Shown: positions 357 through 20,442 of the stretch, piece by piece
Numbering within the stretch: position 1 is the first letter of the stretch
Layout of the letters: every line of letters starts with the position of its first letter
Assembly: GCF_014054945.1 (NCBI RefSeq)
Contig: NZ_CP059566.1
Span: 562,036 to 626,035, forward strand
Source: Neisseria sicca
GTDB lineage: Bacteria; Pseudomonadota; Gammaproteobacteria; Burkholderiales; Neisseriaceae
Direction of reading: 5' to 3'
DNA length: 64,000 nucleotides
The notes under the pieces: generated by a model
Database searches by the model: none
What the model saw: the letters and a program-made list of their open reading frames with translations, nothing else
Told to the model about the DNA's origin: nothing
Translations under genes and position numbers: made by a program

Positions 357-383
357 GGCCGTCTGAAAACTTTTCAGACGACC
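357..383 (-). terminator. DUS inverted-pair hairpin downstream of the HlyD-family gene
   Basis: ggccgtctgaaaac/ttttcagacgacc inverted DUS copies just 3' of the minus-strand CDS ending at 391. DUS pairs are known rho-independent terminators in Neisseria. Confidence 0.6.
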
Positions 384-390
384 TTTTACC

Positions 391-1545: not shown

Positions 1546-1631
1546 TTTTTGCTTTCCGTTGATTTGGGGGTTGATTCGGTTAATGGGTTGGTGCGGTGGT
1601 TTTCAGGCTGCCTTTAATGCCGTCTGAAACA

Positions 1632-3293
1632 CTATTTCCCCAACGCCGCAAACACTTTCGCCTTCTCCGCCGCCAGAATATCAATCTTGTAATAACGGCG
1701 GTACAGCCACAGGGCGACGGCGACGAGGGTCGATACCGCCGCCATCGCCGCCAGCAGCGCGAACAGGTCGCTGTATGCCGCCACCGACGCTTCTTTGCCC
1801 GCCTGCGCGGTGATTTGCGAGACGGCGCGGCCTTGCAGCAGCACCGGGTCGGAGAGGGTGGCGGAGAGGGCGGCGGCGTTGCGCTGGATGTCGGCGGCGA
1901 GCGCGGGGTTGGAGAGGGTCAGGTTTTGCGCGATGGCGGCGAGGTGGTCGCGGGTGCGGTAAGTTAAAAACGCGCTGAATGCCGCCGCACCCGCCAGCCC
2001 GCCGAGGGTTTGCGACAGGCCGAACACGGCGGAGAAGCTCATCATGTGGTCGGGGCTTTTCGCCAGCGCGCGCAGTGCGCCTTCAAGCATCATCGGCCCC
2101 ATAAACAGCAGCGAGGCAAAGGCAACGATAAACTGGCTGAAATAAAGTTGCGCGGGGCGGGTCTGCATGCCCACGCCGATTTCCAGCCACGCACCGAGGG
2201 CGAAACAGGCGAGCGCAACCATCACGGGGCGGCGGATGTCGTTGATATCCAGCAAAATCAGGCTGCCGACCACACCCGCCAGCATTCCGCCCGCAACAAT
2301 CAGGTAAAACGTGCTCATCTGCGCGCTGCCCACGCCCACCGCGCCCATCAGCCCCGCCGCGCCGACGGTCTGCTCCGAGGTCAAGAGCCGCGCCATCACG
2401 CCCATCACGGCGAAGATGAGGATTTGCGGCACGGTCATCCAGTGCCAGTCCAGCATCGGCTTGTGCCGCGTCGATTCGATGTACAACGCCAGCCCCGTCA
2501 GCCCCACACCGCCCGCGAGCAGCCAGCCGAGCCACTGCGTCGTCCACCACACCGTGCGCCCCTGCACGAGAAAGGCGCACAACAGCGCGATGCCGGAGGC
2601 GAACAGGGTAAAGCTGAGCGCGTCGGTCAGCGTGAACGATTTGCGCACGGTGATGCCGGGCGGCAGCGGCAGGGCGAACAGGCAGGCGGTGCAGGCGAGC
2701 GCGAGGGTAGCCTGAAAGGCGAACACGCCGTTGAGGTCGCCGTCGCCATACAGCAGCGGCACGAGGCTCTGCGCCAGCGGCGTGCCGACCTGCATCAGAC
2801 CCAGCCCGAACACCAGCCCGACCAGCTTTTTCGTGCCGGTAAAGCCCTGCATCATGTAGTAAATCGACAGCACCAGCAGGCCGCTGGCGGCGATTGCGGC
2901 GGCAACACACGCGATGAGTTCCACTTCGTAATGGTGATAAACCAGTTGCAGTAGGCTGGCGGCAAGCTGGGCGAACAGGGTGATGCGGACGAAGCGTTGC
3001 AGGCCATACGCCTTGCGGACTTTGAAAAAGAGGACGCTCATGCAGGCGTAAGCCATGAAATACGCCGCCTGAATCCAGCCGCCCTGCTGCAAATCGAGCG
3101 ACAAATCGCCGCGCAGCTGCGGCAGCGAGGCGGTGAGCAGCCCGTTTTGGAAGCCCGACGACAGCGCGAGTAATAAACCGATGGCAAGATACGCGAGCCG
3201 CCGCTTTTTCGGATGCTCGGGCGAGGCGGGCGAACCCGGCATAAAGGGCATTTCATGCGGCTTGAAGGTGTAGCCGCCGGATTGCAGGGGCAT
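1632..3293 (-). CDS. polytopic inner-membrane efflux transporter (MFS-type, EmrB/FarB-like by context; a FUSC-like family is not excluded)
   Basis: 553 aa, about 12-14 predicted TM helices, placed immediately upstream of (and in operon with) the HlyD-family gene. Start may be the internal MPFMPG Met. Confidence 0.6.
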   Translation of the reverse strand: MPLQSGGYTFKPHEMPFMPGSPASPEHPKKRRLAYLAIGLLLALSSGFQNGLLTASLPQLRGDLSLDLQQGGWIQAAYFMAYACMSVLFFKVRKAYGLQRFVRITLFAQLAASLLQLVYHHYEVELIACVAAAIAASGLLVLSIYYMMQGFTGTKKLVGLVFGLGLMQVGTPLAQSLVPLLYGDGDLNGVFAFQATLALACTACLFALPLPPGITVRKSFTLTDALSFTLFASGIALLCAFLVQGRTVWWTTQWLGWLLAGGVGLTGLALYIESTRHKPMLDWHWMTVPQILIFAVMGVMARLLTSEQTVGAAGLMGAVGVGSAQMSTFYLIVAGGMLAGVVGSLILLDINDIRRPVMVALACFALGAWLEIGVGMQTRPAQLYFSQFIVAFASLLFMGPMMLEGALRALAKSPDHMMSFSAVFGLSQTLGGLAGAAAFSAFLTYRTRDHLAAIAQNLTLSNPALAADIQRNAAALSATLSDPVLLQGRAVSQITAQAGKEASVAAYSDLFALLAAMAAVSTLVAVALWLYRRYYKIDILAAEKAKVFAALGK

Positions 3294-3345
3294 GGGGTTT
3301 CCTTTGGTGGGGTGGACGGGACAAAGTTTTAGATTTTTAGGCTAC

Positions 3346-4250
3346 CTCAGCTGTAGAAAATAACCGCATTGTTTACACCACAGGTTGAGAAAAGTAAGCC
3401 TGCAAGACCTCAAACGGCGTATCGCCGCCCAGACTACCGTGCGGCTTCACGGTGTTATAAAAGTTCGCAAATCGGCACAGCTCCTTTTGCCGGTGTTCCC
3501 GACTGTCAAAACTCTGCTTTTCGTGCCACATTTCCATAATCGTCCGAATAACCCTCTCGGCTTTGCCGTTGGTCTGCGGACGGGCTGGACGGGTAAACTT
3601 TTGATTGATGCCGTTTTCATAACAGGCAGTACCGAAAGCATGACTTGCCCCGCCTTTATATTCGCTGCCGTTGTCCGAATACACGCACTCGATCAAATAG
3701 GGGCAGGGTTCGATGACTTGTTCCGTTAGGAACTTGGCCGCACTGTCTGCGGTTTTGTCCGGCAGGATGGCGGCATACAGTTCTCTTGAGAAATCATCAA
3801 TGGCGACAAACAGGTAATCTCGTTTGTCGGTGGCTTTCTGACCTTTGAGCAGCGGCAGCCGTTTGGTATCGAGATGTACCAGCTCTCCGGGGTAGGATTT
3901 ATTGTAGCGTTTGGCCTGCCTTTTGAGTTTTTTCTGAATGCTGCGTTCTACCTTGGCTAGGCGTTTCATTCCGTACTTTGCCTGTTTGAAACGGTTGTTG
4001 GTGCTGGTTTGGGGTTTGAGCAGCCTACCCCTTGCGGCTTTAAGTGCGCGATAGATGGTGACACGGCTGACTTGGTAACGCCGTGCCAATGAGCTTACGC
4101 TTTCCTTCTCCTGTGTGTATGCTGTCCAAATGGCTTGGCGGTGGTGCGGGGTGAGGCGGGTATTTTTGTGCATGTTCATGTCAGTATTCTCCTGAAATAC
4201 TGTAAACAACGCTAGGGATTTCTACACCTTATTTGTCCGCCGCAAAACCT
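3346..4250 (-). mobile_element. IS1655-like insertion sequence (IS30 family), copy 1
   Basis: Transposase with the IS30-family DDE region (HLDTK...DNGSEY...NGKAERV). Terminal sequences (tgtagaaa...) match the second copy at 14807-15700 in inverted orientation. Confidence 0.75.
3373..4179 (-). CDS. IS30-family transposase (IS1655-like)
   Basis: MNMHKNTRLTPHHRQAIW...HTH N-terminus, DDE catalytic core. About 90% identical to the ORF at 14857-15663. Start set at the MNMHK Met, as in copy 2. Confidence 0.85.
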   Translation of the reverse strand: MNMHKNTRLTPHHRQAIWTAYTQEKESVSSLARRYQVSRVTIYRALKAARGRLLKPQTSTNNRFKQAKYGMKRLAKVERSIQKKLKRQAKRYNKSYPGELVHLDTKRLPLLKGQKATDKRDYLFVAIDDFSRELYAAILPDKTADSAAKFLTEQVIEPCPYLIECVYSDNGSEYKGGASHAFGTACYENGINQKFTRPARPQTNGKAERVIRTIMEMWHEKQSFDSREHRQKELCRFANFYNTVKPHGSLGGDTPFEVLQAYFSQPVV

Positions 4251-5659
4251 CCGCCAAAGGCGGTATTTAACGCCAGCCACGCGGTAAATAGCTTCGCCTG
4301 TGCCTGCGCCAGTTGCGCTTCGTTTTGCAGGGTTTCGTCCTGCGCGGCGAGCCAGTCAAGCTTGTTGTCCAGCCCCGCGCGGTAGCGGCTTTGCGCGGCG
4401 GCGGCGTTTTTGCGGGCCAGCGCGGTCATCTCGGTTTGGTCGCGCACGGCTGCGGCAGCGGTTTCGTATTGCGTCAGCGCGTCGGCCGCCTCGCGCAGGG
4501 CGGTGTAAACGTTTTTGTTGTAACGCGCCGCCTGCTCGTCAAACTCGGCTTCCTTGCGCGACAGGTTCGCCCGCAACGTGCCGGAAGTAAAAATCGGTAG
4601 GCTCACGCTCGGCAGCAGTCCGGCGAGAAACGACGACGAATGCGGCAGGTTGCCGATTTCCACATTGGACAAGCCGGCCAGCGCCTTGATGGTAATGTTC
4701 GGATAAAACTCGGTTTTCGCGCTGGCAACCAGATGGCGGCGGGCGGTCAGTGCCTCGCGCTGCGCCGCCAAATCGGGGCGTTTGCCGAGCAAATCGGCGG
4801 TGAGCTGCGACACGGGCGGTGCGGGGGTGGTGGTGGCGGGATTGGGCGTGAAAGTGTCCAACGCCTGCGCCGGTTGTCCTGTCAGCGCGGCAAGCGCGTG
4901 GCGCACTTGGGCAATATTGCCGTCCAAATCTGACAAGGCAGCCTGAAAACGGCTGTTGCCCTGTTGCACGGCATAGAGTTTGCTCGGTGCAAGTTGTCCT
5001 GCGCGAATCAGCTCGCGCACCACCTGCTCGCGTTCGCGATTCAACTGCGCCCGCTGCGCCACGCGCTGCCGCGTTTCCAGCAGCAACTGCCATTGGCGGT
5101 AATACGTCGCCACGCCCTGCGCCAGCAGCAGCCGCGTCTGCGCGATTTCGTATTCCACGGCGCGTTGCTGCCCCAGCGCAGCTTCCAGCTGGTGCTTGTA
5201 TTTGCCGAACACATCGGGCGACCATTGCCCTTGCAGTTGCAGCGATTCATAAGTGATATTGGTGCCGTGGTCGCCCAGCAGCCGCTTTTCCAAATCGCTG
5301 ATGAGTTCGGGCTTCTCGCGCTCGTTTACGCCGTCGCGGTGCAGCAGTGCGCCGCTCAGCCCCAATCCAATCTTCACGCCGCGCTGCGAATCCGCCAAAT
5401 CCGCCCCCGCCTGCGCCTGCCGCAAGCGCGCCTGTGCCGCCGCCAAATCGGGCGAACGCGCGAGGGCGGTGTCAATCAGGCTGTCGAGCTTGGCATCGTT
5501 GAGCGCACGCCACCATTGCGGCGCAATCGGCGGCTGCGAGCTGGCGGGCAGACCGAGCGTTTCGGCGGTTTCCACGGCGGCGGGGGTGTGCTTGGGATGA
5601 GTGGCGCAGCCCGAAAACAGTGCGGCACAGAGGAAAAATAAAGGGAAGCGTTTGAACAT
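4229..5659 (-). CDS. efflux outer-membrane lipoprotein, NodT/OprM family
   Basis: Real start MFKRFPLFFLCAALFSGC (lipobox LFSGC) at 5659. The six-frame ORF is extended upstream artefactually. Two OEP repeats with conserved coiled segments; C-terminus ...GGGFAADK. Confidence 0.8.
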   Translation of the reverse strand: MFKRFPLFFLCAALFSGCATHPKHTPAAVETAETLGLPASSQPPIAPQWWRALNDAKLDSLIDTALARSPDLAAAQARLRQAQAGADLADSQRGVKIGLGLSGALLHRDGVNEREKPELISDLEKRLLGDHGTNITYESLQLQGQWSPDVFGKYKHQLEAALGQQRAVEYEIAQTRLLLAQGVATYYRQWQLLLETRQRVAQRAQLNREREQVVRELIRAGQLAPSKLYAVQQGNSRFQAALSDLDGNIAQVRHALAALTGQPAQALDTFTPNPATTTPAPPVSQLTADLLGKRPDLAAQREALTARRHLVASAKTEFYPNITIKALAGLSNVEIGNLPHSSSFLAGLLPSVSLPIFTSGTLRANLSRKEAEFDEQAARYNKNVYTALREAADALTQYETAAAAVRDQTEMTALARKNAAAAQSRYRAGLDNKLDWLAAQDETLQNEAQLAQAQAKLFTAWLALNTAFGGGFAADK

Positions 5660-5877
5660 TTTGAAATATATATAAACAGGAATCGGGATGATTATAACGA
5701 AAAACGTATCGGGCGGGGGTTGGAAAACTTCAACGCAAAAGGCAGAGACCTTTGCAAAATTCCTTTTCCCCCAACAGCCGAAACCCAAACACAGGTTTTC
5801 GTCTATTTCCGCTCCTAATTACTCCTGATTTTACCCAAATACCCCCTTAATCCTCCCCGGATACCCGATAATCAGGC

Positions 5878-6962
5878 ATCCGGGCCGCCTTTTAGGCGGC
5901 AACAGGCACACTTAGCCTGTTAGCCGCTTTCAACAGGTTCAAACACATCGCCTTCAGATGGCTTTGCGCACTCACTTTGAGCAGACCAAAATAGGCTGCC
6001 CGGGCGTAGCGGAATTTACGGTGCAGCGTACCGAAGCTTTGTTCGACCACATAACGGGTCTTCGACAAATATCGGTTGCGTTTGGTTTGCGCCTCCGTCA
6101 GCGGACGGTTGCGGTGGGCTTTGCGCATAATGCCGTCTAACAACTGATGCTCTTTCAGATGTTGCCGGTTTTCCTTGCTGTCGTAGCCTTTGTCGGCATA
6201 GACGGTCGTACCTTCGGCAATGCCTTCCAACAAAGACGACAGATGGTTGCACTCATGGACATTGGCGGGGGTAATCTGCAGTTTCCCGATATAGCCTTCC
6301 TCATCGGTACGGGTATGTTGTTTGTAACCGAGTCTGTATAAACCGTTTTTCTTTGTCTAACGGGCATCTTTATCTTTGCTCGGTGTGGTTTGGCCGCTGA
6401 CTTGCCCTTCTTCATCGACTTCTATGGCCTGACGCTGTTTGCTGCCGGCGGTCTGAATAATGGTGGCATCAATGACGGCGGCGGATGCCTTCTCTACTTT
6501 TAGGTTTTTTTCGGCCAGTTGTCGGTTAATCAGTTCCGGCAATTCGGACAAGGTGTCGTCTTGCGCCAGCCAGTTGCGGTAGCGGCATAAGGTGCTGTAA
6601 TCGGGGATGCTCAGTTCGTCAAAACGGCAAAACAGGTTGAAGTCGATGCGGGTGATGAGGCTGTGTTCGAGTTCGGGATCGGAGAGGCTGTGCCATTGTC
6701 CGAGCAGGACGGCTTTGAACATGGACAACAGGGGATAGGCGGGACGGCCGCGGTGGTCTCTAAGGTAACGGGTTCTTTGACGATTCAGGTATTGTTCGAT
6801 CGGCTGCCAATCAATCACCTGATCCAACTTCAATAGTGGGAAGCGGTCGATGTGTTTGGCAATCATGGCTTGGGCGGTTTGCTGGAAGAAGGTGCTCATG
6901 AGAAATCCCCTAAATGTCTTGGTGGGAATTTAGGGGATTTTGGGGAATTTTGCAAAGGTCTC
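5878..6962 (-). mobile_element. IS1106-like element (IS5 family), copy A, transposase inactivated
   Basis: Ends ...gccgcctaaaaggcggcccggat and gagaaatcccctaaatgtcttggtggg...ttgcaaaggtctc. Transposase reading frame is interrupted. Confidence 0.75.
5892..6899 (-). pseudogene. IS1106 transposase pseudogene (single in-frame TAG, W->stop)
   Basis: ORFs 6357-6899 and 5892-6233 are in the same frame (1008 nt). The intact copy at 14338 reads gcccgttggacaaag, whereas here the sequence is gcccgttagacaaag. TGG->TAG at 6357-6359. Confidence 0.8.
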
Positions 6963-6992
6963 AATCCGCCTGTGTCAATAAAAGTGTAAAAA

Positions 6993-7023
6993 AGAGAAAC
7001 CTTATTTTATAAGGTTTCTCTCA
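6993..7023. repeat. stem-loop repeat agagaaacctta..taaggtttctct (copy 1 of 2)
   Basis: Perfect 12-bp inverted repeat. The same ~45-bp sequence (gtgtaaaaaagagaaacctt...ataaggtttctct) recurs at 23293-23337, where it acts as the ssb terminator. Confidence 0.6.
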
Positions 7024-7439
7024 TTTTTTTGTGTTATATTTTACAATATTTAATTATATGTAACTCAAAATGGTTGTTTCTATATTATAAAAAAATGTAA
7101 ATTGTATAATCGCTCAAAATCAATTAGTTGATTTTAATATTTCAATTTATCGCATAAATATGTAAAAATAAAGTGAAAAAGACCAAATTTTAGATCTTAT
7201 TTTTTACACGGCGTTATAATCTCGCGCACATTTTGTCACTATTTCGCTATCGTTTTGTCATCGCGCAATGACAAAATGGCTGCAAAGCGATATGCCAATC
7301 AACATCAAAACGCTCCATAGCAGCTCTGAACAGCAATTTGATAAAAGCATAAGGAATATCGCAAATACTTTACCGCCAAATTCCTTCCTATACACCGAGA
7401 TCTTTGCAAAATCCCCCTAAACTCCCACCAAGACATTTA

Positions 7440-7996
7440 GAGGATTTTCCATCGCTTCCCACTATTGAAGTTGGATCAAGTGATTGATTGGCAACCGATC
7501 GAACAGTACCTGAATCGTCAAAGAACCCGCTACCTTAGAGACCATCGTGGCCGTCCCGCCTATCCACTGCTGTCCATGTTCAAAGCCGTCCTGCTCGGAC
7601 AATGGCACAGCCTCTCTGATCCCGAACTCGAACACAGCCTCATCACCCGCATCGACTTCAACCTGTTTTGCCGTTTTGACGAACTGAGCATCCCCGATTA
7701 CAGCACCTTATGCCGCTACCGCAACTGGCTGGCGCAAGACGACACCCTGTCCGAATTGCTGGAACTGATTAACCGCCAACTGACCGAAAAAGGCCTAAAA
7801 ATAGAGAAAGCATCCGCCGCCGTCATTGACGCCACCATTATTCAAACTGCCGGCAGCAAACAGCGTCAGGCTATAGAAGTCGATGAAGAAGGACAAGTCA
7901 GCGGCCAAACCACACCGAGTAAGGACAAAGATGCCCGTTGGACAAAGAAAAACGGCCTCTACAAACTTGGTTACAAACAACATACCCGCACCGATT
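7440..7996 (+). mobile_element. IS1106-like element copy C, 3'-truncated
   Basis: Left end gagatctttgcaaaatccccctaaactcccaccaagacatttag. Transposase N-terminal 177 aa are identical in pattern to the other copies up to ...YKQHTRTD. Homology stops at 7996 and the ORF then runs into unrelated sequence. Confidence 0.75.
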
Positions 7997-8055
7997 CTGA
8001 AATCGCTTTCAGACGGCATTTCCGTATCAAGTGCGGTCGTTTTACAACCAGTTTT

Positions 8056-9399
8056 TTAGCAGCCCGCGAACAAATCGTTCAGCCCTTCGGCGATGGTCGG
8101 GTGGGTGAAGATTTGGTTTTTGATGTAGGTGGCGGGGATGCGGTGATCGATCGCCATTTTGAACAGGTTGATAATCTCGTGCGCTTCGGCGCAGAACAGG
8201 GTTACACCGAGAATTTCGCCGCTGTGCGCGTCCACCACGGCTTTGAGCAGGCCGTCGGTTTGGTTGAGGATTTTGGCTTTCGGAATTGCGTCGGCTTTCA
8301 GTTTCAACACTTTCACCTCGCGCCCCGATTGCTGCGCGGCGGTTTCGGTTAAGCCGATATGAGCGAGCGGCGGCTCGGTAAAGGTGGCGGTCGGGAACGG
8401 GGTGCGGTCGGCGCGGTTGCGTTTGCCGTCGCCGAAAAGCTGTTCGCGCACGATGCGGTAGTCGTCGAGCGAGATGTAGGTGAACATCGGGCTGCCCGCC
8501 ACGTCGCCCATCGCCCAGATGTGGTTTTTGCCTTGCACGCGCAGATGGTCGTCAACGAGGATGAAGCCGCGCTGGTCGGTTTTGATGCCCGCGTTTGTCA
8601 GACCCAATCCTTGCGTGTTCGGCACGCGCCCCACGCCCACCAACACCGCGTCGGCGGTAAATTCGCCTTGCGACGTGATGACGCTGGTGTCCGCCGTATT
8701 GTCGCGGAACGCTTCAATCTTCACGCCTTGCAACACCTTGATGCCTTTGCTGTTTAATACGCGCAGCATTTCTTCGGCGATGTCGCGATCTTCACGCGGC
8801 AGGAAGCGGTCGCCGCCGTCGAGAATGGTGATTTCGCTGCCGAAAGCGTGGAACATAAAGGCAAATTCCAAGCCGATGTAGCCGCCGCCGATGATGACGA
8901 GGCGGCGCGGGCGTTCGTTCAGCGCGAGCACACCGGTGCTGTCCAGTACGCGCGGGCTGTCTTCGCCCGCCACACCCAGGCGGCGCGGGGTGGCACCGGT
9001 GTTGATGAAAATGCGTTCGGCGGTAAGGGTTTGCTCGCCGCCGTCTGGGTCAGTCAGTTTGACCGTGCGATCGTCGAGAAACTCGGCGCGCGCGTTGAGC
9101 ACGGTTACGCCGTCCAGATTGTCCAGTTTGGCGAAATTGGCGGCGCGCAATTTCGGAATCAGGGTGTTTTTCGCGTTCATCGCCGCCGCAAACACTGCCG
9201 CTTTGTCGGCGTTATGCCCGCGCTGCTCGCTCTCGACAATCAGTTTTTTGCTGGGAATACAGCCGATGTTGATGCAAGTGCCGCCGTACATCTGCGCCGA
9301 CTGTTCCACCAGCACGACCTGCTGCCCGTGTTTCGCCAAATCTGCCGCCAGCGTTTTGCCCGCTTTGCCAAAGCCGATAATAAGATTTTGTGTGTGCAT
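8056..9399 (-). CDS. pyridine nucleotide-disulfide oxidoreductase (class I, RclA/YkgC-like or dihydrolipoamide-dehydrogenase-like)
   Basis: Start MHTQNLIIGFGKAGK (GxGxxG), redox-active CxxxxC (GGTCINIGCIPSK), second NAD-binding GxGxxG (VIIGGGYIGLE), C-terminal dimerisation domain. The six-frame ORF's upstream extension translates the IS1106-end remnant. Confidence 0.8.
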   Translation of the reverse strand: MHTQNLIIGFGKAGKTLAADLAKHGQQVVLVEQSAQMYGGTCINIGCIPSKKLIVESEQRGHNADKAAVFAAAMNAKNTLIPKLRAANFAKLDNLDGVTVLNARAEFLDDRTVKLTDPDGGEQTLTAERIFINTGATPRRLGVAGEDSPRVLDSTGVLALNERPRRLVIIGGGYIGLEFAFMFHAFGSEITILDGGDRFLPREDRDIAEEMLRVLNSKGIKVLQGVKIEAFRDNTADTSVITSQGEFTADAVLVGVGRVPNTQGLGLTNAGIKTDQRGFILVDDHLRVQGKNHIWAMGDVAGSPMFTYISLDDYRIVREQLFGDGKRNRADRTPFPTATFTEPPLAHIGLTETAAQQSGREVKVLKLKADAIPKAKILNQTDGLLKAVVDAHSGEILGVTLFCAEAHEIINLFKMAIDHRIPATYIKNQIFTHPTIAEGLNDLFAGC

Positions 9400-9460
9400 A
9401 ATTTGTCTCTGTGAAATGATGGATTGCGCGCCAATTATATACCTTATCGATTTATTTTTA

Positions 9461-9530
9461 CATGAGACCTTTGCAAAATCCCCCAAAATCCCACCAAGAC
9501 ATTTAGGGGATTTTGGGGGATTTTGCAAAG
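9461..9530. repeat. solo IS1106-terminus-derived miniature palindromic element
   Basis: tgagacctttgcaaaatcccccaaaatcccaccaagacatttagggga matches the IS1106 left end. It is followed by the inverted partner ggggattttgcaaagttctca. No transposase is present. Confidence 0.6.
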
Positions 9531-9535
9531 TTCTC

Positions 9536-9580
9536 AGGCCGTCTGAAACCCGGAATTAGGTTTTCAGACGGCCTTTTTTG
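9536..9580 (-). terminator. DUS inverted-pair terminator downstream of the LysR gene
   Basis: aggccgtctgaaacc...ggttttcagacggcct followed by a T-tract. Confidence 0.65.
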
Positions 9581-9617
9581 TTTTTCAGGCAGCTTTTTTG
9601 GAATGGCCGGCGGCATC

Positions 9618-10517
9618 TCAGACGGCCTTCCCCCACGCTTCCCCCATCATATCCACCAACGCCCGCACTTTGGGCGAGAGCTGTTTGCGGCTGGGATACA
9701 CCGCCATCACGGGCACGGGTTTGGATTGGAAATCATTTAAAACGCTTTTCAGGCTGCCTGAATCGAGGGCGGTTTGCACCAGATAATGCGGCAGTTGCAC
9801 GATGCCGAATGCGGACAGCGCGAGTTCCAGCAGGGCTTCGCCGTTGTCGGCGCTGAAGCGTCCGCTGCCTTGGAAGGTGGTTTCTTTGCCTTTTTGCTGG
9901 AAACGCCAGCGGCTGACGCGGCCGCCGTGTAGGAAATGCAGGCATTGGTGGTGTGCCAAATCGTCGGGGCTTTGCGGCGTGCCGTGTTGAACGAGATAGC
10001 CTGGGGCGGCGCAGGTGAGCATTTGCTGGCTGCCGACGGTGCGGGCGATCAGGCTGTCGAATTGGGGCGGGTTGCCGTTGCGCAGAGCGAGATCGTAGCC
10101 GTCTGAAATCAGGTCGGCGTAGTCGTCGGTGAGTGAGAGTTCGACGCTGGTTTGCGGATAGCGGTGGAGAAAATCCGCCAACAGCGGCGGCAAGATGGTT
10201 TTGCCCAACACCAGCGGCGCGCTGATTTTCAGACGGCCTTGCGGCTCGATGCTGCGTTGGGCAAGGCATTGCTCGGCGTTTTCCAGCTCTTCCAACACGG
10301 CGGTGCAGCGTTCGTAAAACAGCCGCCCTTCATCGGTGGGCGCAAGGTTGCGCGTATTGCGCTGCAAAAGGCGCACGTTCAACCGCGCTTCAAGGCGGGC
10401 GATGCGTTTGCCGATGGTGGAGCGGGTCAACCCGAGTTGTTTGGCGGCGGCGGTAAACGAGCCGCTTTTTACGCTGGCGACAAAGGCGGTCATATCGTTG
10501 AGATTGTTGAGTTCCAT
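9618..10517 (-). CDS. LysR-family transcriptional regulator
   Basis: Start MELNNLNDMTAFVASVKSGSFTAAAKQLGLTRSTIGKRIARLE (HTH) followed by a LysR substrate-binding domain. Divergent from the monooxygenase gene. Confidence 0.85.
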   Translation of the reverse strand: MELNNLNDMTAFVASVKSGSFTAAAKQLGLTRSTIGKRIARLEARLNVRLLQRNTRNLAPTDEGRLFYERCTAVLEELENAEQCLAQRSIEPQGRLKISAPLVLGKTILPPLLADFLHRYPQTSVELSLTDDYADLISDGYDLALRNGNPPQFDSLIARTVGSQQMLTCAAPGYLVQHGTPQSPDDLAHHQCLHFLHGGRVSRWRFQQKGKETTFQGSGRFSADNGEALLELALSAFGIVQLPHYLVQTALDSGSLKSVLNDFQSKPVPVMAVYPSRKQLSPKVRALVDMMGEAWGKAV

Positions 10518-10696
10518 AAATTTTTCTTGCGCAGATCGGGCATTTATGCCCGACAAATACAGGTAAATTTAAAAACGTCGGGCATCAATGCCCGACCTAC
10601 ATTTGGTATTTTCTTGCCCGAGATTAGGGAAGCACATTCCCGAATAAAACAAATATACTTCATCCCGTGCAAAAACACATCACAAGGAGCAAAAAA
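10518..10696. promoter_or_regulatory. divergent LysR / monooxygenase promoter region with paired palindromes
   Basis: Contains two copies of the palindrome gggcat(n)atgcccgac (10530-10548 and 10578-10600) and AGGAG 8 nt before the ATG at 10697. Typical arrangement for LysR autoregulated divergent pairs. Confidence 0.4.
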
Positions 10697-11662
10697 ATGA
10701 CTGCGCTGAAATTACCCGAACGCCTGCAAAACCATCGCGGTTTCGCCCGCACTTTCCAACCGGGCAAACTCACATTGGGCCTGATTGCGCCCTTCAAAGG
10801 CTATCCCGACAGCCCCGTGCCCGAAATGGACGACTTCGCCACCGTGATAAAAGCCGCCGACCAAAGCGGCATTGCCACGCTGTGGGTGCGCGATGTGCCG
10901 TTTTACGACCCGAGTTTTGGCGATGTCGCGCAGATTTACGACCCGTCGGTAACGCTGGGTTATCTCGCCGCGCTCACCCAAAACGTTGCGCTCGGCTCGG
11001 CGGGCTATGTGTCGCCGCTGCGCGAACCGGTGCTCACCGCCAAAGAAGCCGCGTCGGTGGAACAAATCAGCGGCGGCCGCTTCCTGCTCGGCTTGGCCAG
11101 CGGCGACCGTCCCACCGAATACCCCGCCTTTGCCTCCGATTTCAACAACCGCGCCGAACGCTACCGCGAAGCGTGGCAAATCATCCGCCGCCTGACGCAG
11201 GAAAAATTCCCCGCATTCAATAGCGAACACTACGGCAGATTCAGCGGCAATTTGGACTTGGTGCCCAAACCCGCACACGGTTTGCCGATGCTCGCCATTG
11301 GCCGCGCCCGCCAAGAGCTGGAATGGATTGCCCGCGAAAGCGACGCATGGATTTGGTACGGCATCGCCCCCGAAAAACTGGGCGACATCGTCAACACGCT
11401 CAAAGAATTGGGCGACGGCGAAACCTGGAAACCCTTTGGCGTGGCGAATTTCGTCGAACTCTTGGAAGACCCGAACGCGCCCGCCGAGTTCTACAATAAC
11501 ATCTACCTGCGCGGCGGCGCCAAAGGCATCGTCGAGTTTTGGCAGAAACAGCAGGCCGACGGCGTGGCACACATTACCGTGAACTTAAAACCCACACGGC
11601 GCGGCGCGCTGGAAACCATTCAGGATTTCGCCGAAAACGTGATACCGCATTTTGCGGTGTGA
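10697..11662 (+). CDS. luciferase-like (LLM-class) flavin-dependent monooxygenase/oxidoreductase
   Basis: 321 aa from MTALKLPERL. TIM-barrel LLM signature regions (TLWVRD..., GRFLLGLASGD, FNSEHYG). RBS aaggag upstream. Confidence 0.75.
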   Translation: MTALKLPERLQNHRGFARTFQPGKLTLGLIAPFKGYPDSPVPEMDDFATVIKAADQSGIATLWVRDVPFYDPSFGDVAQIYDPSVTLGYLAALTQNVALGSAGYVSPLREPVLTAKEAASVEQISGGRFLLGLASGDRPTEYPAFASDFNNRAERYREAWQIIRRLTQEKFPAFNSEHYGRFSGNLDLVPKPAHGLPMLAIGRARQELEWIARESDAWIWYGIAPEKLGDIVNTLKELGDGETWKPFGVANFVELLEDPNAPAEFYNNIYLRGGAKGIVEFWQKQQADGVAHITVNLKPTRRGALETIQDFAENVIPHFAV

Positions 11663-11697
11663 GATTTGGGGGTTTCAGGCTGCCTGAAATGCTAAAC

Positions 11698-11731
11698 GCC
11701 GTCTGAATCCATTTTTCAGACGGCTTTTTTG
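11698..11731 (+). terminator. DUS inverted-pair terminator
   Basis: gccgtctgaatccatttttcagacggc followed by a T-tract. Immediately 3' of the LLM gene. Confidence 0.65.
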
Positions 11732-11792
11732 TGTTACGGCGATTTTTCTTTATAATACGAAAAATTTTTATGAATTAACAAAGGCTGGAATT

Positions 11793-13556
11793 ATGGCAGT
11801 AGAAGCAGCTAACGGCGATTTATTGCACGTGGTGGAGTTATTGGGGGCGGCGGTAGTTGCCGTGCCGTTATTTAAACGTTTAGGTCTAGGCTCAATTCTG
11901 GGTTATTTGGCTGCGGGGCTGGTTATCGGACCCTTCGGATTAAAGCTCGTTACCGATTCCCACGCTATTTTGCATATTGCGGAATTCGGCGTGGTGATGT
12001 TTCTGTTTTTGATCGGGCTGGAAATGAAGCCGTCGCATTTATGGAAATTGCGTAATCAGATTTTCGGCTTGGGTACCCTGCAGGTGACGTTTTCCAGTCT
12101 GTTCCTTACCCAAATCGGGCTGGCTTACGGTTTTCCTTTAGTGATGTCGTTTATTTCGGCGGTAGGTTTTACACTCACCTCCACCGCAATGGTCATGCAG
12201 ATTATGGACGAACGTCATGAAATCAGCACACCGCAAGGTCAGCGCATTGTCTCCATTTTGCTGTTTGAAGATTTGCTGATTGTGCCCATGCTGGCGATTG
12301 TAGCATTTCTAGCACCCGATAATCCCAATGCCGTTGCCGATGCCGTACCGCTATGGCAGAAAATCGGTGTTGCCGCGCTTTCTTTGGCAGCGTTGATTGC
12401 GACAGGTATTTGGCTGCTCAATCCGCTGTTTAAAATTCTGGCAAAATCCAAAGCACGCGAGGTGATGACTGCCGCCGCGCTGCTGGTGGTACTCGGTGCG
12501 GCTTATTTAATGGAGCTGGGCGGTCTGTCTATGGCGATGGGTGCGTTTCTGGCGGGAGTGCTGCTGTCGGAATCCGACTTCCGTCATCAGCTTGAAGCGG
12601 ATATCGAACCGTTCCGAGGCCTTTTGCTCGGGCTGTTTTTCTTAGCTGTCGGGATGTCGCTGGATGTGGCAACGGTGCTCAATAACTGGAAGGTAATTCT
12701 TTCCGCCACTGTACTGATGATTATCTTGAAATGCCTTGCCATTTATGGAGTGGCGCGTTTTGCCAAAGCAAGCCATCGCACCGCGATACACCGCGCCGTA
12801 CTGATGTCGCAGGGCGGTGAATTCGCCTTCGTATTACTCGCCTCCGCTGCCGTACAACGGGCGATTAATGCGGAAGTGCTAGCGAATATGACGGCAATCG
12901 TGGTGCTCTCCATGATTATGACACCCTTCAGCGTTATGCTGTTCGACCGCTATTTCAAAGAACCCCGCGCAGCTGTGGCAGTGGATGATGTGGAAGAACA
13001 TGCGGGCGAACTCAACGGCAACGTGCTGATTATCGGATTCGGGCGCATGGGGCAGGTGGTCAGCCAAATGCCGCTAGCCTACGGTGCCACCATTTCCATT
13101 CTGGACAACGATCCCGACACCATCAACGTCGCACGCGAATACGGTTTCAAAGTCTATTACGGCGAAGCCACCCGCGCCGACGTGCTGCATGCCTGCGGCG
13201 TAGAACACACCGACATCGTAGCGGTATGCGTGGACGACGGAGAAAGTGCGGTCAGAATTGTGGAAAATATTCATCATATCAACCCGAACGCCAAGGTGTT
13301 CGTGCGCGCCTGGGACAGACGCAATGCGCTGGCCCTAGTGAAAGCGGAAGCGGATTTCGTAGTGCGCGAAACCTTCTATTCTTCCATGAAAATGGGCGAT
13401 GAAATCGTCAAGGCATTGGGTGCTAGCGTGCAGGAATTACGTGCCATACACGACAAAGTACGCGACGCCGACAAAGAACGCTTCGCTTTGGAAATTGCCG
13501 GCAAGGAATTTGAAGGGCGCAGATTACTATTGGGGAATATAAAGAAAAATTCGTAA
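11793..13556 (+). CDS. kefC: glutathione-regulated K+ efflux / CPA2 cation:proton antiporter with C-terminal TrkA-N (KTN) domain, KefB/KefC-like
   Basis: 587 aa. N-terminal 12-13 TM Na+/H+ exchanger domain. C-terminal Rossmann GxGxxG (LIIGFGRMGQVV) KTN NAD-binding domain. Confidence 0.8.
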   Translation: MAVEAANGDLLHVVELLGAAVVAVPLFKRLGLGSILGYLAAGLVIGPFGLKLVTDSHAILHIAEFGVVMFLFLIGLEMKPSHLWKLRNQIFGLGTLQVTFSSLFLTQIGLAYGFPLVMSFISAVGFTLTSTAMVMQIMDERHEISTPQGQRIVSILLFEDLLIVPMLAIVAFLAPDNPNAVADAVPLWQKIGVAALSLAALIATGIWLLNPLFKILAKSKAREVMTAAALLVVLGAAYLMELGGLSMAMGAFLAGVLLSESDFRHQLEADIEPFRGLLLGLFFLAVGMSLDVATVLNNWKVILSATVLMIILKCLAIYGVARFAKASHRTAIHRAVLMSQGGEFAFVLLASAAVQRAINAEVLANMTAIVVLSMIMTPFSVMLFDRYFKEPRAAVAVDDVEEHAGELNGNVLIIGFGRMGQVVSQMPLAYGATISILDNDPDTINVAREYGFKVYYGEATRADVLHACGVEHTDIVAVCVDDGESAVRIVENIHHINPNAKVFVRAWDRRNALALVKAEADFVVRETFYSSMKMGDEIVKALGASVQELRAIHDKVRDADKERFALEIAGKEFEGRRLLLGNIKKNS

Positions 13557-13962
13557 AATAGACCGCACTTTTGTAGCTGCAAGCGATGGAATTTAAGCGA
13601 AAAATTGCAAAAATTCCACCGCACTTTTTACGCCCGTTCGGAACGCAGGCGGTGTTGGCGGATGTTTTTCAGCAGGCGGAACAGTTCCGCCCACGCGGAG
13701 CGTTTCGGCTGCGGGGTGTTGCCTGTGCCGATGAGCTTCATTTGATAAGCATACCAGCCCAGTTCGAGAAAGCCGCCGAGCTTGCGATCGATGAATCCCA
13801 AGCCTGTGCGGACGGCGGGCAATTCCGCTTTTGCCAATCCGCCCGATAACATCCGTTGCGGCAAATCGGGAATGAGTGCAAATAGTATTTCAGACGGCCT
13901 TTTAAGGTTTCTACATCTATATTTTAGTCGGCGAACTGTTTTTTCATTCGTTCGCGTCGCTC

Positions 13963-14795
13963 TTGCGCTTCTACGGACAATGGCACAGCCTCTCCGATCC
14001 CGAACTCGAACACAGCCTCATCACCCGCATCGATTTCAACCTGTTTTGCCGTTTTGACGAGTTGAGCATCCCCGATTACAGCACCTTATGCCGCTACCGC
14101 AACTGGCTGGCGCAAGACGACACCCTGTCCGAATTGCTGGAACTGATTAACCGCCAACTGACCGAAAAAGGCCTAAAAATAGAGAAAGCATCCGCCGCCG
14201 TCATTGACGCCACCATTATTCAAACTGCCGGCAGCAAACAGCGTCAGGCTATAGAAGTCGATGAAGAAGGACAAGTCAGCGGCCAAACCACACCGAGTAA
14301 GGACAAAGATGCCCGTTGGACAAAGAAAAACGGCCTCTACAGACTCGGTTACAAACAACATACCCGTACCGATGAGGAAGGCTATATCGAGAAACTGCAC
14401 ATTACCCCCGCCAATACCCATGAGTGCAACCACCTGTTGCCTTTGCTGGAAGGTATAGCCAAAGATACGACCGTCTATGCCGACAAAGGCTACGACAGTG
14501 CGGAAAACCGGCAACATCTGAAAGAACATCAGTTGCTGGACGGCATTATGCGCAAAGCCCACCGCAACCGTCCGCTGACGGAAGCGCAAACCAAACGCAA
14601 CCGATATTTGTCGAAAACCCGTTATGTGGTGGAACAAAGCTTCGGTACGCTGCACCGTAAATTCCGCTATGCCCGGGCAGCCTATTTTGGTCTGGTTAAA
14701 GTGAGTGCACAAAGCCATCTAAAGGCGATGTGTTTAAACCTGTTGAAAGCGGCTAACAGGCTAAGTGTGCCTGTTGCCGCCTAAAAGGCGGCCCG
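13963..14795 (+). mobile_element. IS1106-like element copy B, 5'-truncated
   Basis: ORF begins inside the transposase (…QWHSLSDPELEHS) and runs to the native C-terminus ...LKAANRLSVPVAA. Right end gccgcctaaaaggcggcccggat. Confidence 0.75.
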
Positions 14796-14806
14796 GATCC
14801 CTTATT

Positions 14807-15700
14807 TGTAGAAACTAGTAGCGTTGTTTACAGTATTTCCAGGAGAATACTGAAACATGAACATGCACAAAAACACCCGTCTCACCCCGCACCACCGCCA
14901 AGCCATTTGGCTGGCCTACACGCAGGGGAAGGAAAGCGTCACCTCCCCGGCACGCCACTACCAAGTCAGCCGCATCACTATTTACCGCGCACTTAAAGCC
15001 GCAAGAGGCAGACTGCTCAAACCCCAAACCAGTACCAACAACCGTTTCAAACAGGCAAAGTACGGAATGAAACGCCTGGCCAAGGTAGAACGCGGCATTC
15101 AGGAAAAACTCAAAAGGCAGGCCAAACGCTACAATAAATCCTACCCCGGAGAGCTGGTACATCTCGATACCAAACGGCTGCCGCTGCTCAAAGGGCAGAA
15201 AGCCACCGATAAGCGGGATTACCTGTTTGTTGCCATCAACGATTTCTCAAGGGAGCTATACGCCGCCATTTTGCCGGACAAAACTGCAGACAGTGCCGCC
15301 AAATTTCTGACTGAACACCTGATTGATCCCTGCCCATACCTGATTGAGTGCGTTTACTCCGACAACGGTACGGAATATAAAGGCTCGGCCAACCATGCTT
15401 TCGGTGTAGCTTGTTATGAGAACGGGATTGGTCAAAAGTTTACCCGGGTTGCCCGTCCGCAGACCAACGGTAAGGCGGAACGGGTTATCCGCACCCTGAT
15501 GGAGATGTGGCATGAGAAACAGTTGTTTGACAGTCCGGAACACCGGCGAAAGGAGTTGTGCCGCTTTGTTAATTTCTATAACACTGTGAAGCCGCACCGC
15601 AGTTTGAACGGCGATACGCCGTTTGAGGTCTTGCAGGCTTATTTTTCTCAACCTGTGGTGTAAACAACGCAACGTTTTCCTACACAACAGGAGGGACAAG
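14807..15700 (+). mobile_element. IS1655-like insertion sequence (IS30 family), copy 2, inverted relative to copy 1
   Basis: Ends tgtagaaactagtagcgttgtttacagtatttcc... and ...tgtaaacaacgcaacgttttcctaca. Transposase 14857-15663. Confidence 0.75.
14857..15663 (+). CDS. IS30-family transposase (IS1655-like)
   Basis: 268 aa, about 90% identical to the 3373-4179 protein. DDE motif intact. Confidence 0.85.
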   Translation: MNMHKNTRLTPHHRQAIWLAYTQGKESVTSPARHYQVSRITIYRALKAARGRLLKPQTSTNNRFKQAKYGMKRLAKVERGIQEKLKRQAKRYNKSYPGELVHLDTKRLPLLKGQKATDKRDYLFVAINDFSRELYAAILPDKTADSAAKFLTEHLIDPCPYLIECVYSDNGTEYKGSANHAFGVACYENGIGQKFTRVARPQTNGKAERVIRTLMEMWHEKQLFDSPEHRRKELCRFVNFYNTVKPHRSLNGDTPFEVLQAYFSQPVV

Positions 15701-15775
15701 CAGTTTACGCTTACGCCTGTGCCGTTAAACGAGATCATTCATTTCATGCGGGACACTTGGCGGTATTGCTGATGC
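15701..15775 (+). pseudogene. 3' remnant of a metallophosphoesterase gene (paralogue of 29085-29957) truncated by IS1655 copy 2
   Basis: gacaagcagtttacgcttacgcctgtgccgttaaacgagatcattcatttcatgcgggacacttggcggtattgctgatg is about 85% identical to 29886-29965 (the end of the 29085-29957 CDS). The downstream hairpin ggacggattgaaaacccgtcc matches ggcggataaggaaatccgtcc. Confidence 0.6.
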
Positions 15776-15877
15776 AAAAAGGACGGATTGAAAACCCGTC
15801 CTTTTGTTTTGCCGACTGTTTTTCAGGCAGCCTGCACTATTCAAGGCTACCTGAAAATTCATCTCTAAAATAAAAGC

Positions 15878-16537
15878 TCATTCATTCAATGCTGTCAATC
15901 TCGCCCGAACTTTTGCAGCCGCATCTTCCGTGCTGTTGCCGACAATAACGTTTTGCTTGTCGTCGAAATACTGAACGGCAGGGAGGTCGCGCAGGAAGCT
16001 GTCAATATCCTGTGCGGTCAGGAAACGGCCGTGCATATCCCAGCCGACATTGAGGGCACGCCCTTTGACGGCGGCCATGCGGTCGTGCAGATGGCCGTAG
16101 AGGTGGTATAGGCCGTGGTGGATGCCGTCCCATTCGTATAAGGGATAGTGGCACAAAATCGCGGTATTGCCGATTTCGGGCAGTTTGAGCCGCAGGTAAT
16201 GGCTGGCGGACGAGAGCAACGGATGGCCGTCGGCTTTGCGCGTGTTGAGGAAATGTGCTTCGTTTTGCCGAATCAGGTAGTCGTGGTTGCCGTAAATCAA
16301 ATGGTGTTGCCCGTTAAGCCGTTGCAGCACGGCTTCGATGTGTGCGGGCTTTTTGGCAAAGCAGACATCGCCGAGGTTGTACACAGTGTCTTGCGGGGTA
16401 ACGACGCGGTTCCAGCAGTCGATCAGGTATTCGTTCAACTCGTCGGCGTTATCGCTTTGCAGGCGAAATTGCGGGCAGTATCGGGCGATGTTGGGATGGG
16501 AGAAGTGCCAGTCGGCTGTGAAATAGGTTTGAGGCAT
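15878..16537 (-). CDS. calcineurin-like metallophosphoesterase
   Basis: 219 aa. DWHFSH, GDVCF, GNHD, and GHLH motifs in canonical order. Confidence 0.75.
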   Translation of the reverse strand: MPQTYFTADWHFSHPNIARYCPQFRLQSDNADELNEYLIDCWNRVVTPQDTVYNLGDVCFAKKPAHIEAVLQRLNGQHHLIYGNHDYLIRQNEAHFLNTRKADGHPLLSSASHYLRLKLPEIGNTAILCHYPLYEWDGIHHGLYHLYGHLHDRMAAVKGRALNVGWDMHGRFLTAQDIDSFLRDLPAVQYFDDKQNVIVGNSTEDAAAKVRARLTALNE

Positions 16538-16650
16538 GGGATACTCGGTTTCTGGTCATCTGACAATGAAAAATAAGGTGCAGGCTGCTTTAGAGGTCGT
16601 CTGAAACGGAGTTGGGGCGATAAAAAGCAGCCTGCACTTTTTTTGCCCGC

Positions 16651-18396: not shown

Positions 18397-18397
18397 A

Positions 18398-20440: not shown

Positions 20441-20442
20441 AA

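Follow-up and report, generated by a model that had tools for sequence, protein, structure and literature searches.

The left edge of the window (the whole 64,000-nucleotide stretch of Neisseria sicca DNA analysed here) carries an efflux operon on the minus strand. It encodes an EmrA/HlyD-type periplasmic adaptor (391-1545; NCBIfam TIGR00998, E 5e-66), an MFS efflux transporter of 553 aa (1632-3293; Pfam MFS_1) and a NodT-type outer-membrane efflux lipoprotein of 476 aa (4229-5659, MFKRF...LFSGC; TIGR01845, E 2e-81), whose true start and lipobox were set by comparison with homologues. The segment 1-5745 has 59.8% GC and GCAGCCTGAA-type DUS, and is 98.5-98.7% identical to a Kingella oralis locus with flanks of the same GC content and DUS type. 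Judged by this match, the operon resembles an import from K. oralis. A full-length IS1106-type element of 1218 bp (5745-6962, minus strand) lies where the K. oralis-like operon meets the ssb region. It is 95% identical to an intact copy in locus L091 and has no target-site duplication (TSD). When analyzed by tblastn, residues 1-335 of its transposase were recovered in one frame with a single stop interrupting (..DKDAR*TKKNG..). Its transposase shares a 90% protein cluster with 'IS1106A3 transposase' (IS1106, IS5 family) and with IS5-family transposases of N. meningitidis.

To the right, positions ~7068 to 23375 are a 16.3-kb genomic island of the GInt type, as assigned by architecture and Pfam matches. 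Its parts are a ginABCD-like operon by ssb, cargo, and an AT-rich far end, the 3' end of the island (7068-7396; 329 bp, 31.6% GC). The operon (17986-23284, minus strand, 31.7% GC) comprises ginA-like (21953-23284), ginB-like (20443-21990), ginC-like (18398-20440) and ginD-like (17986-18396) genes. The three large proteins match Pfam Phage_integrase (E 5e-10, 4e-9 and 2e-3, the third being the weakest), and the 136-aa GinD-like protein that follows them gave no domain match. Cargo at 15878-17490 (minus strand) encodes a 219-aa 'phosphoesterase' (15878-16537) and a 279-aa protein (16651-17490). Both genes come after ginD in the GInt copies L101-L110, except in L108, which has the 279-aa gene alone.

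The target gene of the island is ssb (23380-23895, minus strand; 171 aa, C-terminus ...DDDIPF*; Pfam SSB in related loci). Local alignment revealed an imperfect direct repeat of ~100 bp that spans the ssb stop codon. Its left copy (6974-7073, attL side) is chromosomal ssb-downstream sequence, does not differ from the unoccupied site of L093/L094 as far as ...AACTCA, and aligns with the island-borne right copy (23287-23388, attR side), which overlaps the stop codon. In the empty sites L093, L094 and L097, found in N. mucosa/sicca-type contigs, window position 7067 is joined straight to 23287. This agrees with the island boundary at 7065-7069, which recurs in N. subflava L111 and N. elongata L119. 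A host whose flanking DNA has many GCAGCCTGCA-type DUS carries the island backbone too, with 99.7% identity; there, a flanking protein belongs to a cluster of at least 90% identity with one named Kingella denitrificans; another island copy elsewhere has Thoeris genes as cargo.

According to their 2017 description, GInts carry at one end an operon in which three genes of the tyrosine-recombinase type, the last of them degenerate, are joined by a small gene; their cargo varies, their far end is AT-rich, and they insert site-specifically between imperfect repeats. Several unrelated ones insert at the end of ssb (PMC5385486). The main text of that paper does not mention Neisseria as a host. The island resembles GInts in gene order, variable cargo, the AT-rich end of ~0.3 kb, imperfect repeats and the ssb-end site, but GInt repeats are 10-11 nt long (PMC5385486), whereas here they consist of ~100 bp of diverged ssb-downstream sequence. 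It also resembles SEs, whose four core genes, placed at one end, encode tyrosine recombinases and a small auxiliary protein among others. In SEs, however, the degenerate recombinase-fold gene (tfp) is the second, while the weakest integrase match here is the third, as in GInts; SEs have been found only in Gammaproteobacteria.

Nested in the island cargo is a decayed 7.4-kb unit bounded by IS1106 (7397-14806). Its left end is an IS1106 5' fragment with the outer inverted repeat (7397-7995, plus strand; positions 21-65 and 118-660 of the reference IS1106), and the truncation point at 7995 is common to all copies in other genera. The 3' fragment (13974-14806, plus strand; reference positions 261-1093) has lost its last 125 bp and the outer repeat to an IS481 element described below. 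Since the right end is destroyed, a TSD of the unit cannot be shown in the window; intact right ends are present in L011, L115, L118 and L120. The terminal repeats of IS1106 are GAGACCTTTGCAAAA. Both fragments lie in direct orientation with a 400-bp overlap, suggesting that the cargo may have entered an IS1106 through a single crossover. As neither fragment encodes a whole transposase, movement would need IS1106 transposase in trans. The three defective IS1106 copies that had been recognized from the letters alone are thus a nonsense copy (5745-6962), a copy 3'-truncated at 7995 and one 5'-truncated at 13974. A solo miniature element of IS1106 ends, previously placed at 9461-9530, is also real: by BLAST against the IS1106 reference, two left-end repeats occupy 9464-9535 (72 bp) and abut AGGCCGTCTGAA.

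The gene content named earlier for this region (efflux outer-membrane protein, RclA-like flavoprotein oxidoreductase, LysR, LLM oxidoreductase and KefC) is indeed present. Within the unit, the RclA-like FAD disulfide oxidoreductase (8056-9399, minus strand; 447 aa) scores 546 bits with NF040477 (RclA) and 494 bits with NF041853 (HOSCN reductase), both under the NCBIfam equivalog cut-offs; the exact protein is found in 1561 index blocks. It is followed by a LysR-family regulator (9618-10556, minus strand; NCBIfam YafC-like, E 9e-68), a luciferase-like (LLM class) oxidoreductase of the TIGR03571 family (10667-11662, plus strand; 346 bits against a cut-off of 304) and a KefC/KefB-type glutathione-gated K+ efflux protein (11793-13556, plus strand; NF002924, E 1e-161). 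The exact KefC protein occurs in N. sicca, K. oralis and Pasteurellaceae contexts.

The unit also differs from its host in uptake sequences. GCCGTCTGAA was found at 358, 1619, 8008, 9538, 9563, 10098, 10228, 11698, 11715 and 13889. The unit contains 8 GCCGTCTGAA (GCC) and 0 GTCGTCTGAA (GTC), compared to 2 and 50, respectively, to the right of the island (p = 1.8e-8); from 16.5 kb onward, the window has 51 GTCGTCTGAA versus 2 GCCGTCTGAA. The switch of dialect reported by the sequence-only reading is therefore real, although four DUS had been missed and one position was off by 7 bases. All eight GCC-type DUS of the IS-flanked segment fall within the unit, against a GTC host background, indicating that the hint of an import from a foreign dialect was right but that the boundaries are those of the unit and not of the IS-flanked segment. 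N. subflava and N. elongata, which have the unit with both ends intact, bear GCC-type DUS in its flanks. In addition, a 79-bp spacer (13557-13635, 41.8% GC) holds two Haemophilus-type USS cores (13562 and 13618), and the unit has 4 such USS where 0.06 are expected. It carries, then, GCCGTCTGAA DUS of another Neisseria lineage plus Haemophilus-type USS. Islands with atypical DUS are known from commensal Neisseria (ICENmu, PMC7371117; DUS dialects, PMC3630211). As in the ICENmu case, an AG-DUS (GCC) block in an AG-mucDUS (GTC) host marks imported DNA. Unlike ICENmu, the block is no ICE: it is small, is bounded by IS ends, lies inside a GInt and has Pasteurellaceae USS as well.

Two further insertion sequences flank the stretch that holds the outer-membrane protein gene and the genes of the unit. 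The left one (3352-4226, minus strand; 875 bp, transposase 3373-4179) matches NF033577 with E 6e-58, and the right one (14807-15684, plus strand; 878 bp, transposase 14857-15663) with E 4e-53. Both 268-aa transposase ORFs lie exactly where an inverted pair had been reported. That pair had been assigned to IS30/IS1655, which is wrong: apart from the NF033577 matches, the identical proteins WP_003760186 (left) and WP_003755186 (right) bear the NCBI name 'IS481 family transposase'. With IS1655/IS30 they share a DDE (rve-fold) transposase, a similar size and a weak N-terminal HTH_38 match; however, the IS481-family match is strong, and no IS30-family model (E<=0.001) is among the matches listed for the flanking transposases. 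The host is N. sicca and not N. meningitidis, of which IS1655 and IS1106 had been called typical.

The left IS481 element, with terminal repeats TGTAGAAA...TTTCTACA, lies 2 nt past the stop codon of the outer-membrane protein gene and splits the efflux operon between this gene and the MFS gene. IS-free haplotypes have a 251-bp intergenic stretch where the window has 44 bp and the element, indicating that the insertion is not clean. The right element sits inside the IS1106 3' fragment; on its outer side it borders a metallophosphoesterase gene that is truncated here and intact in L104. Neither copy has a TSD at its ends, and none was found when ends were swapped between copies. A composite transposon, or a segment inverting by recombination, had been proposed for the inverted pair and the 10.6 kb between. 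Two related copies in inverted orientation would fit this, and a 91-bp identical run together with a ~200-bp stretch at 94-99% identity could in principle support RecA recombination. We nevertheless consider it very improbable, with transposition largely refuted. Besides the absence of a TSD, the DNA identity is 85.5-86%, not the ~90% given before (90.7% is the protein identity), and at 85.5% the copies are different IS variants. The left copy would also turn an outer-membrane protein gene of the operon it splits into 'cargo'.

Related genomes point in the same direction. The window has both copies; the complete N. mucosa genomes L114 and L116 have only the right one, with this 10.6 kb at the corresponding position and synteny otherwise unchanged; L093 has only the left one and no island at all; L094 and L097 have neither. 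The left copy is absent from L094-L098 and from L114/L116. The exact MFS protein recurs in many contexts, with and without an adjacent IS. No inverted junction was seen in the contexts of the MFS, KefC, RclA and GinC proteins (10 places each). Because all four presence/absence combinations occur, the IS481 copies are independent insertions: unrelated later arrivals whose inverted orientation is coincidental.

Whole or partial copies of the IS1106-bounded unit, 96-99% identical to it, were found in N. mucosa, N. subflava, N. elongata, Aggregatibacter, Haemophilus parainfluenzae, Cardiobacterium hominis and Kingella oralis. At least six genera of three families have it or a part of it. Many of these loci are metagenome contigs that end at IS1106 repeats, as chimeric assemblies or contamination might produce. 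We regard such an artefact as next to impossible, since the unit or parts of it are present in isolates, namely complete N. mucosa (CP028150, CP197397) and C. hominis (LR134365) genomes and drafts of N. elongata, A. kilianii and H. parainfluenzae, and since both flanks of every copy show the uptake-sequence type of the named host.

Homology with the other genera stops to the base at the IS1106 terminal repeats, in unrelated loci. A complete unit in Aggregatibacter (L011, 7587 bp) has a 5-bp duplication, AAATA, that restores the neighbouring host tandem-repeat junction, and one in N. subflava (L120, 7590 bp) has the 5-bp duplication AGGCC. Further complete-ended copies, in N. elongata (L115) and A. 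kilianii (L118), likewise lie at different loci. Thus, two of the four complete-ended full-length copies have a TSD; none was found for a shorter two-ended variant (L153) or for any single IS1106 copy in the fetched loci, so that these loci gave no calibration of the normal IS1106 TSD length. Alternatively, the rclA-lysR-LLM-kefC block may not be a transposon at all, having moved only as a passenger of GInts and by natural transformation followed by recombination, homologous or illegitimate, resident IS1106 copies being among the possible substrates. All hosts are oral taxa, natural competence is established in several of these genera, and the block bears DUS and USS. In K. oralis, C. hominis and H. 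parainfluenzae, incomplete versions stop at points other than IS ends, so that recombination following transformation must also move pieces. The two complete copies without a TSD, the defects of both IS1106 fragments and the location of the unit inside a GInt in A. kilianii and N. subflava L111 too speak for this route. As a sole explanation, we think it rather unlikely. It would make the 5-bp duplications coincidental, against base-exact ends in unrelated loci of different families, the host junction rebuilt in L011 with exactly 5 duplicated bases and the second duplication in L120, and the sites share no flanking homology for recombination.

IS1106-associated rearrangements have been described in Neisseria (e.g. 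PMC3454330), and IS1106 is a rearrangement junction here as well. In this case, however, a 6-kb gene cassette is enclosed by two overlapping copies, both of them truncated; it acts as one unit and also occurs outside the genus, in Pasteurellaceae and Cardiobacterium. Like composite transposons of the Tn5/Tn10 type, it has IS-derived ends, passenger genes, many sites and, in two copies, a target duplication. In contrast to these, its arms are in direct orientation, overlap by 400 bp and are both defective, which makes it non-autonomous.

Taken together, the segment is probably a nested mosaic of independent mobile layers in the N. sicca chromosome rather than the cargo of an IS pair. First, site-specific recombination would have placed a GInt-type island at the ssb stop codon. 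The second layer would be the IS1106-bounded rclA-like-lysR-LLM-kefC unit within its cargo. One IS481 copy may then have entered the right IS1106 fragment and, with an adjacent rearrangement, removed the right end of the transposon, and the efflux operon may have received a different IS481 variant between its outer-membrane protein gene and its MFS gene.

The kinds of element involved are already known, and the spread across families is of moderate interest. If the two IS1106 arms recombined, the cargo would be lost and a single IS1106 sequence of complete length would be restored. Based on family matches, the genes of the unit plausibly protect against host oxidants (HOSCN, HOCl) and electrophiles, and its nearly identical copies show that this putative defence cassette has spread among several genera of mouth bacteria.

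Repeat finding and open reading frame listing recovered two inverted IS copies with 268-aa transposase genes at 3373-4179 (-) and 14857-15663 (+), exactly where the sequence-only reading had placed them. By alignment, the elements extend over 3352-4226 (-) and 14807-15684 (+). They share 85.5% identity at the DNA level and 90.7% at the protein level, with a longest identical run of 91 bp, and no further copy was found within the window. The terminal inverted repeats of both copies read TGTAGAAA(n5)..GTTGTTTACA paired with TGTAAACAA..TTTCTACA. The assignment of this pair to the IS30 family (IS1655) turned out to be wrong. No IS30-family model was listed for the transposases at E ≤ 0.001, and the best match of both was the IS481 model NF033577 (E 6e-58 and 4e-53; 196.5 and 180.7 bits, which is under the curated 224 bits because the alignment covers profile positions 104-283 only). 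Pfam rve and rve_3 were also matched, and NCBI records of N. sicca and N. mucosa give the name 'IS481 family transposase' to proteins identical to both transposases.

Within an operon for efflux (genes for the outer-membrane protein, MFS and EmrA), the left IS481 copy lies 2 nt past the stop of the outer-membrane protein gene. The right copy sits in an IS1106 fragment (14806/14807), and bordering it on the far side is a metallophosphoesterase gene that is truncated here but intact in the comparison locus L104. A target-site duplication (TSD) was found at neither copy, in direct or inversion-swapped combination. It had been proposed that the two copies bound a composite transposon or an invertible segment. 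We looked up the contexts of the exact MFS, KefC, GinC and RclA proteins, 10 places each. Both IS481 copies are present in the window, only the right one in two complete N. mucosa genomes (L114 and L116) in which the gene order is otherwise the same, only the left one in locus L093, which lacks the island described below, and neither in loci L094 and L097. Hence, the copies vary independently, and the synteny of the two N. mucosa genomes is kept without the left copy. Inverted junctions were not seen in any context of the four proteins. The four presence/absence combinations together with the missing outer TSD speak against an IS481-bounded composite, and with no inverted junctions among these contexts the composite-transposon reading was rejected; inversion between the copies is only a theoretical possibility.

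A clean empty site of the left copy, with the pre-insertion sequence, was not recovered among the IS-free haplotypes and locus L092. In the IS481-free haplotypes (L094, L095 and L114; equivalent of 3307-4227), the outer-membrane protein and MFS genes are separated by a 251-bp intergenic stretch that bears an inverted ATTCCCGCGCAGGCGGGAAT-type repeat; its place is taken by 44 bp of unrelated sequence in the IS-bearing haplotype. L092 contains the same 44 bp, the IS-side flank, followed by unrelated DNA that forms a restriction-modification/DndB island.

Comparison of the same loci revealed a different boundary. In L093, L094 and L097, window position 7067 is directly joined to 23287 (empty sites), and thus the window carries a 16.3-kb insertion. 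This insertion is flanked by direct repeats of about 100 bp that match imperfectly (6974-7073 and 23287-23388), and the repeat spans the stop codon of ssb (protein end ...DDDIPF). Adjoining ssb are three consecutive genes for proteins of 443, 515 and 680 aa with Phage_integrase matches (E 5e-10, 4e-9 and 2e-3). A gene for a 136-aa protein comes next, and the whole block, a ginABCD-like operon at 17986-23284 (-), has 31.7% GC. At its far end (7068-7396), the island has an AT-rich stretch of 329 bp with 31.6% GC. By definition, a GInt has three parts, namely a ginABCD operon, the cargo and, as its other end, 0.2-0.4 kb of AT-rich DNA, and the end of ssb is the insertion site of several unrelated GInts (PMC5385486). 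Judged by architecture and profile matches, namely the integrase trio with its small gene, the AT-rich end, the repeats and the empty site, the island is of the GInt type. As in GInts, the weakest integrase match is that of the third gene, whereas the compared four-core-gene elements (SEs) differ in this respect.

The island boundary (7065-7069) was found again in N. subflava and N. elongata loci. In locus L108, the GInt backbone matches window 16650-23268 at 99.7% identity. The flanks of this locus are rich in Neisseria uptake sequences (DUS), all of the GCAGCCTGCA type, and a protein encoded in them clusters at 90% with one named for Kingella denitrificans. Therefore, the island itself crosses genera. 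The same GInt backbone was observed in L104 (14669-19309), where a metallophosphoesterase and a Thoeris pair (ThsA Macro, ThsB TIR) replace IS481 and the IS1106 unit.

This IS1106 unit (7397-14806) lies within the island cargo. The three IS1106 copies and the miniature element are present as had been described: a full-length copy of 1218 bp at 5745-6962 (-) with one in-frame stop, a 5' fragment with the outer repeat at 7397-7995 (+), a 3' fragment in the same orientation at 13974-14806 (+), and an element of 72 bp made of two IS1106 ends at 9464-9535. The family is identified by the IS5-family model NF033581 (E 7e-69) and by a 90% cluster shared with 'IS1106A3 transposase', and the ends of the 1218-bp copy are GAGACCTTTGCAAAA. 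The genes reported between the IS481 copies were likewise recovered; they encode a NodT-type outer-membrane protein, an RclA-like flavoprotein, LysR, an LLM oxidoreductase and KefC. The two fragments that enclose the unit overlap by 400 bp (reference positions 261-660): the left arm comprises IS positions 1-660 and the right arm 261-1218. As neither arm holds the full 335-aa ORF, the unit encodes no functional transposase. The overlap suggests that the cargo entered an IS1106 via a single crossover, and arm-to-arm recombination would rebuild an IS1106 sequence of complete length. Only the left unit end survives in the window because IS481 cuts the right end at 14806. Here, the unit is immobile, its left arm having a small deletion and its right end being lost to the IS481 insertion.

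The switch in DUS dialect noticed along the window is real. GCCGTCTGAA (GCC type) occurs 10 times in the first 14 kb, and from 16.5 kb on there are 51 GTCGTCTGAA (GTC type) versus 2 GCCGTCTGAA. GTCGTCTGAA is AG-mucDUS, the dialect native to both N. sicca and N. mucosa (PMC3630211), and look-ups of exact proteins assigned the window to N. sicca. The IS1106 unit contains 8 GCC-type and no GTC-type DUS, and the region to the right of the island contains 2 and 50, respectively (Fisher p = 1.8e-8). The suggestion drawn from this switch, that the segment between the IS481 copies had been imported, was right about the foreign DNA but not about its limits: all eight GCC-type DUS of that segment (8/8) fall at 7397-14806 and are thus confined to the IS1106 unit. 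The dialect anomaly correctly flagged imported DNA. In addition, cores of the Haemophilus-type uptake sequence (USS; AAGTGCGGT) were found at 8029, 13244, 13562 and 13618. All four are in the unit and they are the only ones in the 64-kb window, with 0.06 expected. Two of them belong to the spacer downstream of kefC, 79 bp with 41.8% GC, which Pasteurellaceae copies also have. King/sim-type DUS also occur in the unit. Elsewhere, clusters of GCAGCCTGCA (king3-type) and GCTGCCTGAA DUS were observed at 15800-17200 and 30600-33100 in a background that is otherwise GTCGTCTGAA; these may be further imported patches.

The efflux operon (emrA, MFS, outer-membrane protein; 1-5745) contains five GCAGCCTGAA-type DUS and has 59.8% GC. 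It shares 98.5-98.7% identity with a K. oralis locus whose flanks match, and it is also found in N. bacilliformis. Its limit falls precisely on the IS1106 (-) copy, a junction element that lacks a TSD. The operon looks like a separate import. The uptake signals of the unit and the K. oralis-like efflux operon therefore indicate that imports from several oral genera have been pieced together in the left third of the window. Further to the right, an IS630-family element of about 900 bp (28110-29010) is missing from L094 and L097, where the sequences on either side have a 2-bp overlap (TA-type duplication), and a 98% identical copy is located elsewhere in the ATCC 29256 draft. Two low-GC stretches at 42000-44000 (35%) and 48000-50000 (34%), compared to a background of about 51%, may be further islands.

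The exact KefC and RclA-like proteins are present in many genomes, and there the homology to the window stops to the base at the IS1106 termini. With 1561 index blocks of public assemblies listing the exact RclA-like protein, the cassette is common. In a KefC search of species-representative genomes, the close relatives among the matches listed were from Pasteurellaceae only; the Neisseria hosts of the KefC and RclA-like proteins come from exact-protein look-ups. Hosts of unit copies were assigned by record names, names of flanking proteins and the uptake-sequence type of the flanks. Only 4 differences separate the ATCC 29256 draft (L002) from the window between 6.0 and 16.5 kb, where the two are essentially identical. 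The draft probably comes from the same strain or a sister strain and was thus not counted as an independent comparator.

Both outer IS1106 repeats are present at four loci. The complete unit of an uncultured Aggregatibacter (L011) measures 7587 bp and is flanked by the 5-bp duplication AAATA. Successive units of a host tandem repeat flank it and, with this duplication, rebuild the intact junction GGTTAAATAACGTTCC. The N. subflava unit (L120) measures 7590 bp and has the 5-bp duplication AGGCC, inside a DUS. The complete units of N. elongata (L115) and A. kilianii (L118) have no duplication, and the latter sits directly downstream of ginD of a GInt that is 83% identical to that of the window. 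In total, unit sites with distinct flanking genes were found in N. subflava, N. elongata (two), Aggregatibacter (two) and N. sicca/mucosa. Among full-length single IS1106 copies in the compared loci, no TSD was found, all being the same copy or recombinant junctions. Metagenomes yielded only two variants of further two-ended units, neither with a TSD, and most contigs there break at the IS1106 repeats. Based on the two duplications and the exact boundaries at the IS ends, we conclude that the unit is probably a non-autonomous composite transposon. A limited literature search retrieved no earlier account of it or of an IS1106 composite outside Neisseria.

Partial units were found in Kingella oralis (lysR-LLM-kefC), Cardiobacterium hominis (LLM-lysR-rclA with an IS1106 fragment) and H. 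parainfluenzae (rclA and kefC with IS1106 fragments). From such copies we conclude that the unit also moves piecemeal by recombination. In two H. parainfluenzae loci (L013 and L014), lysR-LLM gives way to roughly 300 bp from the 5' part of IS1106, located where the miniature element lies, and the breakpoints of this variant coincide with the DUS pair 11698/11715. It was also observed that IS1106 ends repeatedly adjoin AGGCCGTCTGAA, both at the miniature element (9536-9547) and at the N. subflava unit, where a DUS begins with the duplicated bases AGGCC. DUS may be a target preference of IS1106.

The RclA-like protein scores under the NCBIfam equivalog cut-offs both for RclA (546 bits versus 740) and for the HOSCN reductase MerA (494 versus 650). 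It is a family relative with an activity predicted from sequence. KefC-type systems respond to electrophiles. E. coli RclA is a hypothiocyanite reductase, and RclA-type enzymes reduce HOSCN (PMC9335216). A role of the unit genes in tolerance to host oxidants is plausible.

Taken together, the observations of the sequence-only reading largely held, as did its import hint, which applies to a different unit; its family name and its mechanism did not. An inverted IS pair may look plausible yet be coincidental, and the real mobile units emerged from population comparison. The GInt, the IS1106-derived composite and the IS481 element are all of known kinds; the noteworthy part is the distribution of one defined cassette across families. 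The range of ssb-targeting GInts now includes commensal Neisseria and Kingella, one copy carrying Thoeris defence genes. We put forward, tentatively and with more doubt than confidence, that the unit might be a non-autonomous 'shuttle' transposon of the human oral microbiome: with the signals of two competence systems, Neisseria DUS and Pasteurellaceae USS, it would be taken up by both lineages, lodge via transposition or in ssb-targeting GInts, and spread tolerance to oxidants from saliva and neutrophils (HOSCN, HOCl) and to electrophiles across at least three families. The unit represents a concrete route of gene exchange among oral Neisseriaceae, Pasteurellaceae and Cardiobacterium, with genes that are plausibly selected by host oxidants.
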